Shown: positions 23,340-35,229 of the stretch, one piece after another | Layout: every line of letters begins with the position of its first letter | Position numbering within the stretch: the stretch's first letter is position 1 | Source of the DNA: Podospora anserina | Lineage: Eukaryota | Direction: 5' to 3' | NCBI GenBank assembly: GCA_017654855.1 | Contig: CM030337.1 | Location: 2,108,001-2,172,000, forward strand | DNA length: 64,000 nucleotides | The notes under the pieces: model-generated | What the model was told of the DNA's origin: nothing | What the model saw: only the letters and a program-made list of their open reading frames with translations | Databases searched by the model: none | Position numbers and translations under genes: made by a program

Positions 23340-24328
23340 ATGGCTTTTGAGCGTAAGATGCTGCTTTCCCGAGATGCGGGGGAAGCTCCTGAACTGACAC
23401 ACGCATCCAGGTCTCGTCAGATTTGTGCCCAAGGGCGACACCAGTAAGGTCCTGGTCGGAGAACCAGTAGACAGCTCTGTCGATGTCGGTCTCGCTGTCT
23501 ACAAGGGAGAGGAGGTCCAGGTCAAGGTTTACAGCGGAAGCTCCGTTCTCGATGCCGGCTCACCAACGGGCGAGACCGCCGTCATCGGCCAGATCCTCTC
23601 GCCCGTAACGGCCAACGAGGCCGGCACAATCCGCTGCATCGGGTTGAACGTAAGTTCTTAGTAGCAGCCTGAAGGAGACTCGGGAACGTGACTAACAACT
23701 TCAACAGTACAAGCGCCACGCCGAGGAGGCCAAGATGAGCATCCCCGATATCCCGACCCTCTTCCTGAAGCCCCCTACCTGCCTTGCCGGCCCCTACCCA
23801 GAACCCACCATCATCCCCAAGCACACCATCGCCTCCGACTCGGCCGACTACGAGTCCGAGCTCGCCATCATCCTCGGCAAGGAGGCCAAGAACGTCTCCG
23901 AGGCCGACGCTCTCGACTACGTTCTCGGATACACAGCCTGCAACGACATCTCCTCCCGTGCCTCGCAGTTTGCCCAGACGCAGTGGTGCTACTCCAAGGG
24001 TTTCGACGGCGCCTGCCCTATCGGCCCCGTGTTGGTCTCCAAGGATGTTATCAAGGATGTCGGCAAGCTCAGACTCAGAGGGTTGAAGAACGGAAAGGCA
24101 GTTCAGGACAGCCCGCTCACTGATCTCATCTTCTCCGTCGAGCAGATCGTCAGCTTTGTGTCACAAGGCACGACTCTGCCCAAGGGCACAGTCATCATCA
24201 CTGGCACCCCCGCTGGTGTCGGCTTTGCTCACAAGCCTCAGGAGCTTCTCCATGACGGTGACGAGTTTATTGTTGAGATTCAGCCACATATCGGCAGCTT
24301 GGTGAACAAGCTGCAGAACGAGAAATAG
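23340..24328 (+). CDS. Fumarylacetoacetate hydrolase (FAH) family protein; exons 23340-23352, 23411-23649, 23708-24328
   Basis: Spliced MAFERLVRF..., CIGLNY, FLKP, DYESELAII, GYTACNDISSR, KGFD, IITGTPAGVG motifs. Confidence 0.93.
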
Positions 24329-24657: not shown

Positions 24658-24757
24658 CCATCCATCCATCCATCCATCCATCTATCCATCTATCCATCTA
24701 TCCATCTATCCATCTATCCATCTATCCATCTATCCATCTATCCATCTATCCATCTAT
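24658..24757. repeat. Compound (ATCC)/(ATCT) microsatellite, about 100 bp
   Basis: Alternating ATCC/ATCT units visible. Confidence 0.9.
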
Positions 24758-24807
24758 CCTACCATCACACTCACTCTTTTTTTCTCTTCCCAACACTAAT
24801 AACCATT

Positions 24808-25625
24808 ATGACCTCCAAACACACACCGCTCCCGGCCGCCGCCCTCCCTTCTCGTTCGCCCATCACGAACAAAAAATCTCCAAGCATTGCCTGCTCGCGG
24901 TGGAAGAACACCGCCACCAAGCCAAAAACACCCCCGTCGTCGACTGCTCACGGAGAAAAAAAACGGGCACTCAAGCTGGAAAAGCAGCAGCCTCGAGGTG
25001 GGAATAGAGCGTCAAAAAATTTGAAAAGAGGGCCCGCCGAGCAGAAAAGTCGAGTCTTGGATTGGAGAGGGAGCGCTACAAGAATAAGAATATTAAGCTC
25101 AAGCACAAGATTTTGAGGGCTGAAAGGGATAATAAAGAGAGGGAGGGGGTTAGGATTGTTGAGGAAATTGCCAGGGCGAGAATGGAGAGGGTGAGGTTGG
25201 AGGAGGAGGTTACCACCATAAGGATGGAGAGGGAGGTTAGGAGGGTCAAGTTGAACGAGGAGATTACTAAGATGAGGATGGAGAGGGTCAAGTTGGAGGG
25301 GGAGGTTCTCGCGAACCTGATGGAGGCGCAGGTTCTCGCCCGGGGGAGGGATAATAAAGGTGTGGAGGGGGTTAGGTTGGAAAGGGAGGCTGATAAGATT
25401 ATGATGGAGGCGCGGGTTTTGGCCCAGGAGAATGTTGATAGAGTTGCCGAGGGGCAGAGGTTGATGGAGGAGGTTGATAGAGTCCGGGCGGAAAAGGAGA
25501 TCCTGGAGATGGTGAGGCAGGAGCATGGTTTGAGGTGGGAGAAGATGGTGAGGCAGGAGCATCGTTTGAGGTGGGAGAAGATGGTGAGGCTGCGGCAAGA
25601 GGAGATGATGGGGGTTTGGGGGTAG
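24808..25625 (+). pseudogene. Disrupted (or N-terminally truncated) orphan coiled-coil protein gene
   Basis: The frame from ATG 24808 needs a -1 shift near 24955-24985 and passage of TAG 25005-25007 to join an E/R/M-rich helical frame (25008-25625); 36-bp tandem duplication at 25507-25590. Confidence 0.5.
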
Positions 25626-26190: not shown

Positions 26191-29100
26191 TGTGCTTGTT
26201 GTATCTGGACAAGACTCGGTATGTTTGCTTGGTTAAAGGGGTTGATGTGTTACACAGTCAAGAGCGATAGACAAGAACGAGTGGGTGAGACTACATCCCC
26301 GTCAACGGGAAAAGATATGCCGTCATTTCGCGGGCGAAATGGAACAATACAAACCCCCTATTACTACCTGATTCGAGACTAGCAGCCATTTATTTGTCCA
26401 TAGAAGAGGAGGCATCGCTGTGATGGTGTAACCTTGCACCATATGCTCTTGGCAACTTGAGGAGTTCAATCTAGGTCCAAAGATGGGTGATAGTTGTCCC
26501 GTAAGCAACGCTGAAGCTGTCAAAAGAAAACCCCGCTGGAGTGGGCGAGTTTAAACCCGAGAACCGAGCGATTGGAAAGCGCGGAGTCCAAATGTAATAG
26601 CCGGCGTGGTATGGGGGTTCGGGTTAGGGTTTGTAGCGTCGTTTGCGGAGGTCTATATGGCGTAGCTACGTTCACGAAGTTTGGCCATCGGGCTGCTCAT
26701 GGTGATATGTACCATAACCTTTTTCTCAGGAGGAGAAATGAAGCCGAAGCAATCTTTGGAGAAGTCAAGCTTCTGTAGGGGCTGATGGTCGACGCCGGAG
26801 TCTGTGCGTCTGGAACCAGGCATATCCCCAACCCTATTATAGTCAAGTACAATACCGTTTGTTCAAGGAAATGACGACACTCAAATCTTTCAATCTTGTT
26901 CTCAACAAACTTCTTCGACATCTCATGGGTTTATTCAGCCCGACTCTAACATACTGCCCCTTTTTTCGACCACAACTCTCGCTATGAGATTGGCTGGACA
27001 CCTCGCACGGCTTCCACTCCCGTCTTTCCACCAACGGTGTCAGCCCGCATATCGCGTCCATCCCCTCGGGTCTAGACCATCCAGTCAGCTTCACGAGAGA
27101 AGGCCGCAGAGCTGGAACAAGACTTCTGCCACGCACGTGGGTGGAGTCCCTTGCATTTTGTCTCCCACTAATCCTTTGATGTTCAAGCACGATGCTTGCG
27201 ACATCGGATTGCAGCTGGCTGTTGGACGTTGGGGGCTCACGATGGTGCAAGCGCTGACGGTGTGCATCTTGTCACCCAAACAATTCGAAGCGAGCCGAGG
27301 CCAAGTGGGCTTCTTGACTATGGCTAGAGCACCCTATTCGTTCGGCGATGAACAAGGAAGGTATCACGAAAAGCGTCGGTGTGCTATCCATCCCATCCTG
27401 ATATGCCTGACCGAGCTAGGTTTCACCTGCCATACATGAGAAGAGAAAAACTATGAACTAACTGAAATGACATAGCCAACTTGGTAATAAGCACCACGAG
27501 AATTTCCTGATGTCGAATAAAGACGTGCTCGTCCGCAGCCACTCATGAGCATCAGCCTTATCTCCGGCACATGTCTGGACCCCCACGAATGATCCAGATT
27601 TGGCAGACCCTATTTCGACTACTATGGAAGGGATCCGAGTGAGCACCCACTGCCCGCTCCGAGTTGGGAAGGCGGCCGAAGAGGTTATCGTGACCTCCAG
27701 CCGTCAGTTGGTGACTTGCGGGATTTCATTCTCGCTCTCACAGCATTTACCAAAGGTCAGCAAGGGCAGCGGCTACCGACATCGGTCCGCCAATAAACAT
27801 ATGCAGTTCAACCCACGGGATTGGGTCTTGCAAGAAGGCCGACGGTGCTCCCGCTTCCGATGGACTCGGGCATGCGGACAGCTAGGTTGGGCACGCCCGG
27901 CCAACGACATCAGCTAGAAGGCCAGTGGATCACCAACATCCCAAGGGCCGTAAGGTTAACTAGGCTCGCGCGGCACTTGGATTTTCGTACGACTATGACG
28001 TCTCTGATTGGATCCAACGGCATCCTTCTGGAAGTTTTCTACTGCTGGACAGGTTGAACACCCCCGACTGACCCTTTTATGACTTGCCGATATGCTGTGT
28101 TACCCAACCTCGCCAGCAAAAGTTCATGTCATCGACAGCAAGTCTTGAAGAATCAGCTGCTCGTTTGCCGAGATGCGTACAGTTTCCAATGATATGACTG
28201 ATATCTGGAAGATGTGCGTTGCAGAGAGGGGTTTGGCGAGACCAATGGAGCCGCGGCCAAAGTGGGTAATCCGCCAGGATGGAATATCACGGAGCGCTCT
28301 ATCCTGACCAAAAAGAATGAGGGCAGGTGACCGAGTTTCATCAATCACGATCGGGCGGATCCGGTCAAGAAGCGACTCGGAAGCGGGGACAGAGATGGAA
28401 AATTGATAGTAGCGATGGTAAGGTAGGTTCTCCCCCCACGCTCGGCGATATTGGCATCCCATATGTATGCCAATGGATACCGCGGGTGAAACCCAAAGTT
28501 GGGCCTTCCAACTTTTCCCTTTTACGGCTCAACTGAGGCTATCGTGAACTGGCTGCGGCACATGCATTGTGTAGCACTTGTCCCCAGCCCGTGCCACCAC
28601 CACCGCTCCTCAAGCGTTCAGGGCGTTGACAGGTTCCCGACAGAGGGGCCGAGTAGCTGCCGTGCAGGTCTTCAAAGACGACACCGAGCCAATGGAGGAC
28701 GCAGTACAAGGCAGGCGCCAAAGCGCCGTGTCGGATGCCGGTGGTGTTGAAGGTCTCTCGGACTGTGAAACATGAAGATTGGGCTGGGTTGGCCATTGAG
28801 GTCGCTTGGCGGACAGGCTCTCATTGGTGCCCTATTCCCAGCAAGCTCGCCAGGGCATGGAACAGACGTCACCAAACACAAGCCCTGATCACCCCGCAGT
28901 CGCACCCGGAGGACGGGATTGCGGACATGTCCTTTTGATGGAACCGTGATGGCATGATACCCCAGGACACAAGTCCCGCAGGTGTCAGCCGGATTGCCGC
29001 TGATGGGGATGCCCTCTCGAGGACAAGAGGGGACCTGTTGCTGAAGAGCGGTGTGCTATGTGCTCTTTTGGACTGATGGACGCCTTCCAGCGGCTGATGG

Positions 29101-30180
29101 CAGCATTGCGCGGCTGCCGACGGGCGTTGAAGACATTGCCCGGGGCTGTGTCCGTTCTCTTACTCACTGCCCATACGGATATGTAAGGTAAGGTCAGCAA
29201 GCAGCGGATCAGCACATGCGCCAGAAGGAATACACCAACTTCGTGATCCAGCGGCGTGCCTCTACACAAAGCGTCGTTGATATGTACCACCAGCCTCACG
29301 TTCTGTGTTGTGTGCAGCAGGGTCCTGAGTCCTGACCGAGTGATCTCATGGCTTGCTGAAGAAAAAGCTGGGTGTCATCGCCCATTGGGTGTTTTCAGTC
29401 TCCCTCGGGTGTGACAGGAACATGGTACGGCAACGATGCTGAGAGGTCAATTGGACGGATATCTCGGTGGGACTGGAATGGAGTGGTGGACTTGGAAAAA
29501 CCCAAATCAAAAAAAATGAGAGCCCAATTTGTTTTCCCAAGGTTTGGAATGCCTCGTGACCCTTTCTAATCATGCCACACCGCCGCATTATCCGCTGCAT
29601 CTCTTTTTTTTCTTTCTCTTGTCCCCTGTGGTCGCCTTGTTGCTGCTCGACGACGCCTTCGGGTCACTTCTTTGGGTCTTTTCTTGGCTCTCTTTTCGAA
29701 GCGCCCCAAGAGAAGGAAGGTAGTCTTGGGAGGCGGCTCACAGAGTCCCCAGACTTTTTTTTTCTTTCTCTTTCCGTTGATGCAAGCCAAATCATTTTCG
29801 CATACTGTGTCGAGAGAGGAGTAATAGTACCTGGTGACATCAAAAGTACCCGAGTGGGTTTCTTGGGTTGTATAGGAACAAAGAGTAGATAGCCATGCAA
29901 TTGCAGGTATCTCCCATGTCTTGCTGCAAAGCCCGTGCCCAGCTTGGGTTGATGGATGCCGTTTGTCGAGGGGGGTTCTCTTTTATGCTTTTTTTTTGTA
30001 GTTTCCCCAAACTACCCCCAACCTTGTAGTGTGTGTGCGTGCCTGTGCGCTGCTGCCGGAGTGACTGTGCCCCCCTTTTTTTTTTCTTTCCTTTTTTTTT
30101 GTGCATTTCCTTATTTGGGAGGGGAGGGACTGGGATCTTTAAACCTGGCTCTTGTGCCCGAGGAATTAGGGATTGGAAGA

Positions 30181-30187
30181 TATAAAG
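30181..30187 (+). promoter_or_regulatory. Putative TATA box (TATAAAG) of the Cys-rich peptide gene
   Basis: TATAAA followed by an ATG-free, C/A-rich leader ending at the 30493 start codon. Confidence 0.55.
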
Positions 30188-30413
30188 GGTAGACACCTCC
30201 CACACTTTTCCCTTTGGCCTTTGGGCAGAAGCATCATCATCTCTTCAAGCCTTACCAAACGTTGTCATTGTCAACTCTTTCAAAGCTGCCATTAAGCTAT
30301 ACCTACACCATCCATCTACCTATTTCACCAGCCATAGCACTCAGCTGTTGACTCACCACTTACACACACTTGTGTCCACCTCTATACACACACATACCTA
30401 CCACACCATACCA

Positions 30414-30438
30414 CACAACAGCAACCACAACAGCAACC

Positions 30439-30486
<48 letters not shown>
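30414..30486 (+). repeat. (CAA)n tract immediately 5' of the small Cys-rich ORF
   Basis: About 15 perfect CAA units preceded by CAACAGCAACCA variants. Confidence 0.9.
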
Positions 30487-30492
30487 TCAAAA

Positions 30493-30618
30493 ATGGCCGC
30501 TGTCGAATACCAAGAACTCGTCAACAACTGCTGCTCCTTCTGCTGCAAGGCCATCGACTTTGGCACCCACGACTACTGCCCGGCCAGCGAGCACCCTTAC
30601 AAGGGGTGCCCTTATTGA
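30493..30618 (+). CDS. 41-aa Cys/His-rich peptide MAAVEYQELVNNCCSFCCKAIDFGTHDYCPASEHPYKGCPY
   Basis: Strong start context CATCAAAAATGGCC; 27 of 40 non-start codons end in C and all six Cys are TGC; upstream TATA and ATG-free leader; G/T-rich 3'UTR-like tail. Confidence 0.75.
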   Translation: MAAVEYQELVNNCCSFCCKAIDFGTHDYCPASEHPYKGCPY

Positions 30619-33230
30619 AAGAGCAGAGGGCACAATGCAGATCCATTGTATACAAAGCCCCGCCCGATTGGGATGGCTGCAGTGAAGCGAGACAGCATAT
30701 GCACACCCTTCCTCCTTCGGCACGCTTGGCTCAGGAACAGGGGGGGATTGACGGCATCTACCGTCCCCCCCTCGGAGTTGGGAGTTGGGGTTGTCTCGGT
30801 GAATTGGTGATCCCCATATTTTTCATCGGGGAGATAATTCCCGGATCGACGATGGAGAGAGGAGGGGAGAGGAGGGGAGGATGTCACTCGCAATGGATGC
30901 AAGGCCGAGGGCGTCAGTTTCATGATTCCCTTTCGGTGGAGAGGCACTGTTGATGAGACATGGGGCGGGTCAATCCCTTTTTGCACTTTCGTTTTTTGGG
31001 AGCACAGACATGGATGAGAAGGAAACAAGTGATTTTATGGTGTATAGGGGGCATGGGATATGGAGTCACTCTCTGGGACTGTTCTGGGCGTGTGGGCATT
31101 TTGTTTTTCTTTTTGGCAGATACCCACTTGATAGCCAGTTTTTTGTTCAATCCTGTAACAACTCGGTTGTATTCTATTTTTTGCAACTTTTCGTGTGAAT
31201 AACTAGCTTATGATACCATCTTTGCAAACACATCTGAACGTCCTACCCGCCCAATGGTCATGCACGCATACCTGCAACCGACTGCTTCCGTCCAGAAAAT
31301 AGATCGATATCTTGACCCTACCTACCCTTGACCGACCATCGTGAAGACAACAGTAGCAACAGCAACCGTGCGCAAGTGACCCTGCCTGCCTACCCTGCCT
31401 GCTCGGTTGCTTGCCGCCCGGCGCTTGCCCGCCCACTGCCACGGCGATGCATGAAATGTTTATGTAGGACGCCACGGCTAGGGGAGTGTTTTTTGTTCGG
31501 TGTTCTCTTTTGGGTTGTTTATACATGATATTAGCCTAGTTGAAGAATGCCTTAGGTGGTAGCTGGCCCGGCCTGGCAATATGCGGCCCATCATGGGACG
31601 CACGAGACAGGAAAATAGAGTGATGTTGCTCTCGAGCGGCCGCCTCGGTTGGGGTTTGTGAGGGGTGTAATGAAATCCTATTTCACTTGATATCGAGAGG
31701 GGAGACTGACGTGGCTACCTATCGTGAACCCCTGATCTACAACTAACTGGGGGAAAGCTGGACTGTGCGTTACCAGCCGTTTCCCGCTACCTACCGTTGA
31801 ATGTAACCCCTGAAGAAACGGGTCAAGGCACAACAACCCCCGCCTTGAGCACAACCTCCGCTTTATACTACGCTGTGGTTTGTTAGACGATGATACGATG
31901 ATTCAATCTTTGACTGTTAGAGGTTGTTATGCAGGTGAGTGGAATGGGGTATACAATTGTTGTGTTATATATATCTTACTCCACCTCAGACAAAATGAAA
32001 ATGTGATTGCGAATTTATTGTTGGGGAGATGAGGATGGTGGATGATATTCCGTCAATAACTGATCACCAGTTATCGTGAAACTGTGAAAGAAAGGCGGGG
32101 GATCAACCATCCATCCATTTCCATCTCATCCGGAGTCCGAGCTGGTTCAACTCCCGCAACCAGAATATCTCCAACCATGGTCTATGGCTCGAGTTTATGT
32201 GAGCCAGACTTATATCATCTTTGGGTTTGGGATAGATCACGTAGTACAAGAAGCTCTAGTACTGCCAACAAGGCTGTATGTCAGAGCAGGTAATAAGCTG
32301 ACTATTATCAACCTCCAACAACAACATACATTTCGTGACCATCAAGGATCATGAACCCCAACTTCCAACAAACCCCCCCTCCCCCCTTCCCCCCAGGGTC
32401 AAGATTACGAAAGCACTACACCCCATCCAGCATAGACCAACTAACTTCCTCCTCAAATCCCTACATCCCAACAACCGGGAAACATCTCGCAAGCTATCCC
32501 TCCATTCGATTTAGCTCGAAATATCAGATCATATCCCGTTTCCACCTCCATCATAAGCCTCGAAAACCAAGAAAAAAGCAACCCCTTCTCAGCAGTGATC
32601 TTCTATTCCCCCCCTCAAGGGCTTACAACAACCCGGAGAAGCAAACCTCTAAGCCTACGACGATGCACTTATGCACGTAACCCACACCGAGAAGACTCCA
32701 AAAAAGCAACGAGCATCGCATCAACTCCCGATCCCCGTGTAGTGTACCCCCCGGTCTGCAAGGGCTAGGTACCTATGTAGGTGGCATGGGTTCGAATTGT
32801 TGCGCTGTCGGGGCTGCAGTTTGCCTACCGCTGACCAGGCACTCTCAAAAAGTCGAAACAGCAGGTAGCAACCACCACCACGACCTGCCTTAAACCCAAA
32901 TCACAGACCGGTGTGGGTAAATCCCAGCTGCGCAACAATATCTCAGCCTGCGTAAGATCTACTCTTGAAAAAAGCACAATATACCCCCAATGAAGATACA
33001 CTAGCAAAGCAGGGCAACAAACAGGCTAGTAATCAATAAGGCAGCTCACAAGAAATCCTGCCCCACCCCCCCTAGCATGACGCAAAGGTGGTCTGATATT
33101 CCTTGCTTTCTTCTTCTCAAAAATTCCAATCAATTCCCACATGCCAATGTCAATAATCCCATACCTTGAATCCCAAAACCCATCATCATCCGCTCCCCCC
33201 TTTCATTACCATTATACTCCAACGAAAAAA

Positions 33231-35229
33231 CTAATACAACCCCTGAAAAACAGCCGCAATCCCCCCCTTATCCCACTTAACCCTCCCCTGCCCTCCCTTC
33301 TTCCCCTTGTCAATCTCATGATACCGGTCCCAAAACCGACAGTACAGCGGCTCAATCATGTTCTGCATGTCCTTCGCAAACTGCCCCCTCACCTCCTTCT
33401 CCATGCTATAACTCTTGTGCTTCTGCACCATGTCCTCAAACCCAGCATTAAACAACTGAAACTTCTCCTTGATCTCCGCCTTGTCCTTGCTCCCCAACCC
33501 CTTCATGATGCTGGCACTATCCACCGCCCCTTGCCCGCTCGTCGGTCTCCCACCACCCGACCTGCCACCTTGCCCAGTCTTGATCATGTCGAACAAATGC
33601 ACCGACACATCCTTGCAAGCTTCCATGTAGAGCGAGGTGGCCTTCTTTCTCCAGGCTTCGAGCACACCCAACCGGCCTTGGAGGAGAGGTCCAAGGTCAG
33701 ATTGGAGAATCATCCTCTCGATGATGACGACGCTGTTGGCTAAAAAGACGCCCATGACAGGTTTCTTTTGGAGGATCAACCGTGCCCGGCCGTCGAGGGA
33801 CATCATCAACGCTTCGATGGTGTCAGTGCAGTAGTGCGCAAAGATTTCCTTGCCATCGGCCCCGACGTCGAAAGACGCAAGACTAGGGATGGCGTCCCCT
33901 ACTGCCCCGCTTCTCGAGGCGCTGACAGACTTCCAGTTCCCATCTCCCAACGAAACCATAATGCTCGATATTGGGCGGAGAAATTCCACCATTGTCTGTA
34001 GTCTCTGCATGGTTTCCGAAATGATTGGTATTGGCGCGCCGTCCTGGGGCAGTGTCTGTAAAGAGTTGACCCGCCGCTTTGTGTCCTCCAACAGCTCGGC
34101 AAGGGAAGACTTGGCGGTTTCCCGGACTGGTTTGAGAGAGGCGGCCAGTGAGCTCTTGAGCTCGCCTGTCTTGGCCTCGAGGTTGTTGGAGAGTGCTGAG
34201 ATAATCTCGACGATCTCGTAGGCGAGGTAGCAGTCTGTGTTCATGTGCTGTTTGATGTGACCGTTCAGTTCTCGCAGTGTCCTTCCCAGCTCTACCAGGG
34301 CCGGCTGGCAGGTTGCTTGAAAGACGGAACCCCAGTCTTCTCTCGTGAAAATGTTGCAGATGTTTTCGTACTCGGAGAGGAACAGTCCCTCCATCGCCTG
34401 CGCGTAGGTGCCTATTCCGTTGGTGCCCGCCCGGTAGATTGCGTCTGGGTTCTTCTTCTTTGCCGTGTTGCTGCTGGCCGCGGCCATGTTTACTAGTGAC
34501 GAAGAGAGGTATTGCGATCTTATTTCGGCGTAGATCTTTGCTACTGGTGATTCTTGTGGTGGATTAGCCCCTGCAGTTTGCTGATTTACAAATGAGTTCA
34601 TCAGGCCGAGTTTGTTGAACTTGTCTTGTGACAACACTGGGAACGCCTTGTTCTTCGTGATGAAGTGTAGTGGTTCGATCATTCTTGGTGTTTCGCTTCG
34701 TAATAGTTTGTCGAAAGCATTCTCGAGTTGGGAGTTGCCGAGCTTAACCAGGCGCTGGAGTTCGGCGACGGTCTGTTGGGTTGATCGTAGGTTGGAGGCC
34801 TTCATGTCGTCGAGGGCCTTGTTAAGACGCTTGATTGAACCAAGGTAGTTGGAGAGGCCGGCCTTGTCGGGGCCCATTCGGATAATCTGTTCTTCGTCAT
34901 TCTTGCTGTCTGCTGGCTGTCGTAGACGTTCAATAGCTGCAATGACGGAATCGATGTCTGAGAAAGAGTGGCACGTCAGCTCCGGTTGCGGATGAGCTGG
35001 CAGCTGGTGGCTACACACTATTGCCGAGTATCTGTAGTCTTCTTGTCTCGCCGTTGAGAGGTCCGGCGACATCACGAACGCTCTTCCCTGTAGCTTCTAG
35101 TCTTCCCAAGCAAGCTTGGATCTTCTTGGTCAACTGGGTGGTCTTTTCGAGGCGCGAGTTGAGAACGTCGACCTCGGCGCGGGCTTCTTCGTCGGCGGCC
35201 GGTCGGCCATTGGCAAGCCCGACAGCCAT
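33231..35229 (-). CDS. EXO70: Exocyst subunit Exo70; intron 34958-35018
   Basis: EEARAEVDVLNSRLEKT N-terminus, IEPLHFITK, FLANS, IKEKFQLFNAGFEDMV...EPLYCRFWDRY C-terminus. Confidence 0.94.

Follow-up and report, generated by a model that had tools for sequence, protein, structure and literature searches.

Can a transcription unit of about 1 kb in a gene-poor interval exist for the sake of a peptide of only 41 residues? The question is raised by a locus in 64,000 nucleotides (nt) of Podospora anserina DNA (assembly GCA_017654855.1, contig CM030337.1, positions 2,108,001 to 2,172,000 of the forward strand), a stretch here called the window, whose own numbering is used throughout. An initial annotation had singled out a short open reading frame (ORF) on the plus strand, 30493..30618, as a real stand-alone unit for a Cys/His-rich microprotein. 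By translation, homology and the ratio of nonsynonymous to synonymous substitution (dN/dS), the locus is a true stand-alone intronless gene that encodes a conserved Cys/His microprotein, the orthologue of Neurospora crassa NCU08013.

A conserved microprotein gene

The ORF consists of 41 codons and a TGA stop and encodes the peptide MAAVEYQELVNNCCSFCCKAIDFGTHDYCPASEHPYKGCPY. It begins at the first ATG of the transcription unit (30493), in the context AACATCAAAAATGGCCG, which bears out the favourable start context that had been claimed. The codon bias is also as described: C is the third base of 27 of the 40 sense codons after Met, and Cys is always encoded by TGC (6/6). The fraction of codons ending in C is 0.68 in the ORF frame; the two alternative frames reach 0.17 and 0.20, and the exon of the neighbouring Exo70 gene 0.33. 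Cys accounts for 6 of the 41 residues, alongside six aromatics and two His.

Relatives of the peptide are not hard to find. A word-index search located the exact 41-residue protein in NCBI, UniRef and nr, on six contigs, together with a “hypothetical protein” of Thermothelomyces myriococcoides that is 73% identical. Orthologues are likewise annotated as hypothetical, so the suggestion that the gene lies below normal annotation cut-offs does not hold. A phmmer search of 1.84 billion representatives (E<=0.001) gave 21 matches, 18 of which are relatives; the remaining three (P0007, P0021 and P0024) are repeat proteins, judged spurious and dropped. P0006, a protein of 453 residues in the same 90% cluster as the 40-residue peptides, looks unrelated by eye and was treated as a clustering error; it is presumably SelA-like. 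A profile search (E<=1) returned 41 proteins, the 40-residue NCU08013 included, and every named one is “hypothetical” or “uncharacterized”. A metagenome scan with the word D[FL]GTHDYC yielded 43 related loci, of which 42 carry an intact ORF of 37-65 residues and the 43rd is cut by a contig end, a pattern well beyond chance.

Purifying selection on the ORF is strong. For 27 distinct ORFs of 40 codons, compared by the Nei-Gojobori method, 322 of the 351 pairs had a finite dS>0.1, and over these the dN/dS ratio had a median of 0.09 and a maximum of 0.435; the window sequence compared with its relatives over the first 33 codons gives 0.10-0.37. Column entropy at codon positions 1, 2 and 3 is 0.33, 0.26 and 0.81, and frame +0 is the sole frame open in all 27 ORFs (27/27). 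Together with this median, the occurrence of the frame in 42 metagenome loci and some 40 database proteins supports the original view of the locus as a real unit.

As stop codon, TGA (30616-30618 in the window) ends 38 of the 43 ORFs from the window and loci L001-L042, or 29 of 34 distinct sequences, and TAG or TAA ends the other five, which are confined to more divergent loci. Read-through or a selenoprotein was considered and rejected: these five use TAG or TAA, in-frame extensions vary from 0 to 206 codons, and no conserved frame follows the TGA. Genuine fused forms were found neither among the phmmer representatives nor in a profile search for “longer” members, and the peptide therefore acts on its own. 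The “longer” members that did appear are artefacts, namely a gene call that reads TGA as Trp, an upstream extension and a run-on. Public gene models in this family are often wrong (P0006, P0008, P0010, P0013, P0017-P0019, P0030, P0053 and P0054), with upstream extensions of 30-110 residues, run-ons into presumed introns or 3' untranslated region (UTR), or TGA read as Trp (374 residues); such spurious N- and C-terminal extensions mean that ORFs of this kind are hard to call.

Gene order ties the locus to N. crassa. The next gene downstream of the microprotein ORF, on the minus strand and outside the microprotein unit, is Exo70 (33231..35096; Pfam Exo70_C 4.5e-97, Exo70_N 1.4e-21), which serves as a synteny anchor. 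In the available parts of two N. crassa expression tables NCU08012 (exocyst component/EXO70) stands directly before NCU08013, and since Exo70 adjoins both, the window gene is its positional orthologue. The 3-kb sequences flanking the metagenome loci showed no Exo70. Named relatives span Sordariomycetidae, Xylariomycetidae and Hypocreomycetidae, a placement checked for four taxa and assumed by us for the others. No relative outside Sordariomycetes occurs among the sampled database proteins, and as far as sampled the family is restricted to this class.

Promoter, leader and 3' region

The proposed TATAAAG box is present on the plus strand at 30181..30187 by direct reading, 312 nt 5' of the ATG; in two relatives (L002 and L008) TATATAAAG lies about 215 nt upstream of the ATG. 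The 5' leader (30208..30492, plus strand, its 5' end weakly hinted by contig ends) is C/A-rich, G-poor, free of ATG and weakly structured, with a CAA/ACA tract at its end. This agrees with the leader of about 300 nt that had been described: the 305 nt before the ORF contain A109 C108 G26 T62, and a perfect (CAA)15 occupies 30440-30484 within a 3-nt repeat at 30415-30490. No ATG occurs between 30147, the most upstream contig start, and 30492. This is unremarkable by itself, because the leader is so poor in G: after mononucleotide shuffling, 680 of 5000 versions were likewise free of ATG. The leader has unusually little structure: its minimum free energy (MFE) is -30.9 kcal/mol for 285 nt, whereas 300 segments taken at random from the window have a median of -84.1 and just five of them are less stable. 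The relatives have a median MFE of -22.3 for the 200 nt upstream vs -68.6 downstream (n=29). Their leaders are G-poor (5-19% G in most) and, over stretches of up to 300 nt, free of ATG in 29 of 42; a CAxxATGGCC-like start context is common among them. Efficient initiation would be expected, because the leader is unstructured and ATG-free and the start context is good. A search of Rfam gave a chance CrcZ match on the CAA tract and nothing else, and the idea of an upstream ORF was dropped when tblastx recovered the micro-ORF and the 3' UTR motif alone, with no conserved downstream ORF.

Is the unit transcribed as a whole? None of the 22 sequencing runs that contain the locus is recorded as RNA; 16 are RNA by guess alone, among them X1, X3 and X6, from three studies, with 18-24 Mb of contigs each. 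Their contigs extend from 30147, 30208 or 30239 to 30395 and then from 30497 to 31201, 31228 or 31405. No intron is indicated, because the contigs that cover the unit show no joints. The CAA repeat (30396-30496) is bridged by no single contig, and we thus infer the continuity of leader and ORF. Contig ends are a weak hint of transcript ends, contig depth is unfit for ranking expression, and uncovered parts in these runs (e.g. 29406-29858 and 31520-31972) were not counted as evidence. A 36-Mb DNA-like run covers the entire 4.5 kb of the region.

The unit had also been called highly expressed and tightly regulated. High expression is something that contig data cannot show, and NCU08013 reaches merely ~0.6-4.3 fragments per kilobase per million (FPKM) in mycelium. 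The values in the available part of one study are 1.69, 4.26, 1.69, 1.29 and 0.61, with no significant change; by the design given in its abstract they correspond to 0, 15, 60, 120 and 240 min of light (PMC4169166). Tight regulation finds some support in a roughly 10-fold rise of NCU08013 in perithecia at 96-120 h. In the portion of that developmental study at hand the LOX values are 2.19 (BC), 1.48 (2 h), 1.61 (24 h), 1 (48 h), 2.58 (72 h), 9.61 (96 h), 11.03 (120 h) and 5.66 (144 h), and the rise coincides with visible asci bearing developing ascospores (PMC4203796). In N. crassa its expression thus increases at a late stage of fruiting-body development. Over four stages of conidial germination the values given in the available data are 1.11, 1, 2.99 and 2.84 (PMC6437048). 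In the accessible tables of a further study NCU08013 falls in the “salmon” co-expression module, by our own count of tabs, and has two differential-expression rows, with log2 fold changes of -1.62 (baseMean 238) and -2.03 (baseMean 402) (PMC7084071).

The 3' UTR would be about 0.6 kb long (30619..31228, plus strand, possibly to 31405), as suggested by contig ends, a weak hint from runs of guessed RNA status. It had been described as G/T-rich, and the 583 nt 3' of the stop do contain G178 T162 A126 C117. By alignment and pattern search it carries a conserved motif, CCGCCCGATTGGGATGGCTGCA (30660..30681, plus strand), at the start of a block that extends to about 30760 and is common to the window and the Sordariales-type loci. 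An IUPAC pattern of the motif occurs once in the 64-kb window vs 0.02 expected. A looser pattern, composed after viewing the alignment, matches the window as well as 32 of the 41 related loci whose downstream sequence is at least 71 nt long, beginning 18-94 nt past the stop; it is missing from more distant loci, which keep the ORF. The block (30660-30760) reads CCGCC-N3-TYGGG-N2-GRCYGCA, followed in relatives by ATGCA, CTGCAGC-like, CACCGGTC-like and GGAGAT..GATCGA-like words. The motif falls in varying reading frames among loci.

Does the block fold? It is locally self-complementary, and two hand-drawn helices have 79% of cells paired vs 24-45% when slid. No structure is claimed, because 122 of 500 shuffles do as well and covariation in the helices is 0.054 vs 0.059. 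RNAalifold on the block finds three pairs at -0.71 kcal/mol, which leaves a conserved structure unsupported, and no Rfam family matches it. The block is a candidate protein-binding or DNA-level element, and a long 3' UTR with a conserved motif would be a candidate site of post-transcriptional control. At position 30770, just beyond it, the window and the DNA-like run X17 have C, whereas X1, X3 and X6, each with one contig over the site, have T; this is most simply a strain polymorphism, with an RNA-level change as the less simple alternative.

Several other features lie in the surrounding gene-poor stretch. Its upstream border is a plus-strand exon of the fumarylacetoacetate-hydrolase family (23696..24325; Pfam FAA_hydrolase 3.4e-56). 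A microsatellite, (ATCCATCT)12.5, occupies 24660-24759, and at 25507-25590 a 36-nt unit is repeated in tandem (2.3 copies, 97% matches) within a 205-codon open frame (25008-25625) whose product is Glu/Arg-rich and repetitive, with no convincing family in a Pfam search. Two more open frames, 26843-27439 and 28985-29374, gave no Pfam family. At 28500-29329, 29890-30123 and 32005-32302 the runs of guessed RNA status have short contigs of low depth, which may stem from unannotated or non-coding transcripts or from carried-over DNA.

A putative metal-dependent mini-domain and its rivals

What might so small a peptide do? The eight-ligand pattern read from the window peptide, CC-x2-CC-x7-H-x2-C-x4-H-x4-C, is correct. 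Across 46 aligned sequences the family core is CC-x2-CC-x3-D-x-G-x-HDYC plus a distal Cys: M1, C13, C14, C17, C18, D22, G24, H26, D27, Y28, C29 and the distal Cys (C38) are invariant, and V10, A20 and T25 are at least 90% conserved. The window protein, a free ORF of about 40 residues, agrees with all invariant columns. Neither a signal peptide nor a CAAX end is present, as had been claimed, and there is no hydrophobic segment; its N-terminus is polar and its C-terminus ends ...GCPY.

The distal part varies among lineages. A C29-x(4-6)-CxxC arrangement occurs in 34 of the 46 sequences, the Sordariales/Xylariales-type 40-residue forms that end in CPY, CPN, CPD or CPS, and C29-x2-C-x(4-6)-C in ten, the Hypocreales-type forms with K/D/E-rich tails, a few of which begin directly at MCC. 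One sequence (1/46) has both. Core Cys number seven in 40 sequences, eight in five and six in one, the window copy. The putative eighth ligand shifts accordingly in position: it would be Cys35 in most, Cys32 in Hypocreales-type forms and His34 in the window copy, which keeps His at a position where His is common.

These features suggest a metal-dependent mini-domain with a conserved surface for a partner or switch, a reading that to our judgement has about an even chance of being right; two Zn(II) would be the first choice of metal and a Cu(I) cluster the second. The argument is made from sequence: eight Cys/His ligands lie within about 26 residues, the knuckles are of CxxC type, an H-x2-C follows, and no metal-free fold is predicted. 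C-x2-C...H-x2-C plus CxxC spacing is zinc-finger-like. The cytosolic 41-residue peptide would have no stable fold of its own and would fold around metal. Fixed ligands C13, C14, C17, C18, H26, C29 and C39, with one floating eighth ligand, would build two tetrahedral sites, most likely for 2 Zn(II) and less likely for a small Cu(I)-thiolate cluster. Residues outside the ligand set (A20, D22, G24, T25, D27 and Y28) are as conserved as the ligands, which argues for a partner-binding or switch surface and not a bulk buffer: the rigid mini-domain may dock on a conserved partner or act as a metal/thiol-state switch rather than as a bulk store.

Several results weigh against a metal-dependent mini-domain. 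A Pfam search with the window protein (E<=10) gave no match, Pfam with 22 family members gave one chance match (E 0.096), and a PDB profile search (E<=10) found no sequence match. AlphaFold2 returned mean predicted local distance difference test (pLDDT) scores of 53.3 and 54.3 from alignments of 27 and 46 rows and so offers no structural support, although a low score is also expected because a metal-dependent fold would give the same. The window copy is without the seventh core Cys held by 45 of 46 sequences; full ligand occupancy is therefore not essential, or His34 substitutes. Footprinting of promoter k-mers turned up generic C-rich words, like stress-response elements (STRE), and poly-T words, and no metal-response element. 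Mycelial expression of NCU08013 is low and its light regulation is not significant in the values available (PMC4169166). The sequence is present in the ESM Atlas, where the nearest clusters are unnamed “hypothetical” proteins at 0.88-0.90, within the chance range.

Could the Cys cluster be a lipid attachment site instead? The peptide would then be an S-acylated (palmitoylated), membrane-tethered signalling or scaffolding peptide, with CC-x2-CC as the lipidation site. The four clustered Cys are indeed the most conserved feature, and in P0045, P0049 and P0051 they lie at the extreme N-terminus (MCC), before a long K/D/E-rich tail, an arrangement that N-terminal dual-Cys acylation motifs resemble. 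Lipidation, however, accounts neither for the floating eighth ligand nor for the invariance of H26, D22, D27, Y28, C29 and the distal Cys, and the 40-residue forms have no hydrophobic or basic membrane-proximal patch, so that this alternative seems unlikely.

A bulk metallothionein-like buffer for Cu/Zn detoxification or storage is somewhat harder to defend. The peptide is small, Cys-rich and without a signal peptide, but its 41 residues include just 6 Cys (a typical member has 7 in 40), six residues are aromatic, and there are no CxC runs. Non-ligand residues in metallothioneins are not as conserved as the ligands; here they are. Neither the window protein nor the 22 members have a Pfam match of this kind, and NCU08013 goes unmentioned in the main text of an N. 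crassa Cu/Zn preprint, its datasets apart (PMC13692017). The initial annotation had set the peptide apart from metallothioneins, and the low Cys fraction, the aromatics, the conserved non-ligand residues and the missing profile match all favour that judgement, so a bulk buffer is quite improbable.

A disulfide or redox peptide, or the precursor of something like a ribosomally synthesized and post-translationally modified peptide (RiPP), fares a little worse. In its favour, the ORF is short and Cys-rich and has a variable C-terminal region, yet there is no signal peptide and there are no Kex2-type repeats, the number of core Cys is odd (seven) in 40 of 46 sequences, and conservation spans the full 40 residues and not a short core. 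The surroundings are gene-poor, with Exo70 the sole identified neighbour and no tailoring enzymes, and we doubt this explanation strongly. That the transcript acts mainly as RNA, with the ORF incidental, is scarcely credible: the coding share is only ~12% of a ~1-kb transcript and the 3' UTR block is conserved and locally self-complementary, but the ORF has a dN/dS of 0.09 and the matching third-position variation, distant loci retain it without the motif, and the block has neither covariation support nor an Rfam family.

The metal-dependent mini-domain can be pushed one step further, to a picture that is rather unlikely. The protein might be a free-standing two-metal Cys7His mini-domain of a kind not described before, which serves as a dedicated metal/thiol-state switch or chaperone in ascus and ascospore development in Sordariomycetes, its mRNA controlled through the unstructured leader and the conserved 3' UTR motif, and the window species might represent a Cys-to-His ligand swap.

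Why does it matter? Microproteins of about 40 residues are rarely characterised, and here purifying selection spans a fungal class that includes Neurospora, Podospora-like fungi, the industrial Trichoderma and Thermothelomyces, and plant pathogens. The gene is already listed in databases, where it belongs to no named family and has no described fold or function. “NCU08013” is named in none of ~8.4 million searchable full texts, literature on fungal small ORFs, CCXXCC motifs and metallothioneins gave nothing relevant to the family, and the gene is absent from the eight supplementary files of the N. crassa knockout-phenotype compendium (PMC7607824). Among catalogued zinc fingers and metallothioneins none has this ligand arrangement, and in the putative metal site the floating eighth ligand would be a natural experiment in metal-site plasticity. 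If the peptide merely buffers metal, the finding is ordinary. Function is directly testable, because NCU08013 has a gene number and gene-replacement deletion is routine in N. crassa.

Comparison with known systems

The window peptide can be set beside several classes of small Cys-rich proteins. Lipopeptide (CAAX) pheromone precursors end in Cys-aliphatic-aliphatic-X, whereas the window peptide ends ...GCPY and, among its relatives, the end is CPY, CPN, CPD or CPS or there is a long tail. Dikaritin-type RiPP precursors begin with a signal peptide and carry Kex2 sites along with repeated cores. Unlike these and other secreted Cys-rich peptides, the window protein has a polar N-terminus, MAAVEYQELVNN, and no repeats. 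With CYSTM/PLAC8-type and dual-Cys acylated microproteins the family has its CC-x2-CC cluster in common, one that some Hypocreales members carry at the N-terminus; the window peptide differs from them in having no transmembrane or hydrophobic segment and no Pfam match of that type, and its invariant His, Asp and Tyr are not explained by lipidation.

Fungal metallothioneins have very high Cys content, CxC/CxxC runs and few or no aromatics or His. Like the copper metallothioneins, the window peptide is small, Cys-rich, cytosolic and without a signal peptide; unlike them it lacks CxC runs, has a lower Cys fraction and six aromatics, and contains invariant His and Asp. The N. crassa copper metallothionein goes by the name CMT/ccg-12 in the available part of one source (PMC7081547). 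A lead to ccg-6 was abandoned, as that gene encodes an unrelated SED1/SPI1-like wall protein.

Two-zinc Cys/His mini-domains offer a different resemblance. The LIM half-site, C-x2-C-x(n)-H-x2-C, and the RING-type cross-brace belong here, and the C-x2-C...H-x2-C...C-x2-C order of the family, with conserved aromatic and Gly residues between ligands, is similar. The window protein differs in its much shorter spacers (eight residues from the first knuckle to His), its doubled Cys pairs and its free-standing form, and no Pfam or PDB profile match to LIM, RING or zinc ribbon was found.

The closest likeness is within the family itself. NCU08013 and the “hypothetical” orthologues of Thermothelomyces, Madurella, Cercophora, Apiospora, Xylaria, Daldinia, Trichoderma, Fusarium poae and others belong to the same family as the window protein. 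Relative to these, the C-terminal part of the window protein is one residue longer (EHPYKGCPY vs xHCxxCPY), and its six core Cys are the sole such case among 46, where relatives have seven or eight. Its close relatives of 40-41 residues (P0003-P0005, P0027 and P0028) are 68-78% identical to it and share the same CC-x2-CC...GTHDYC core.

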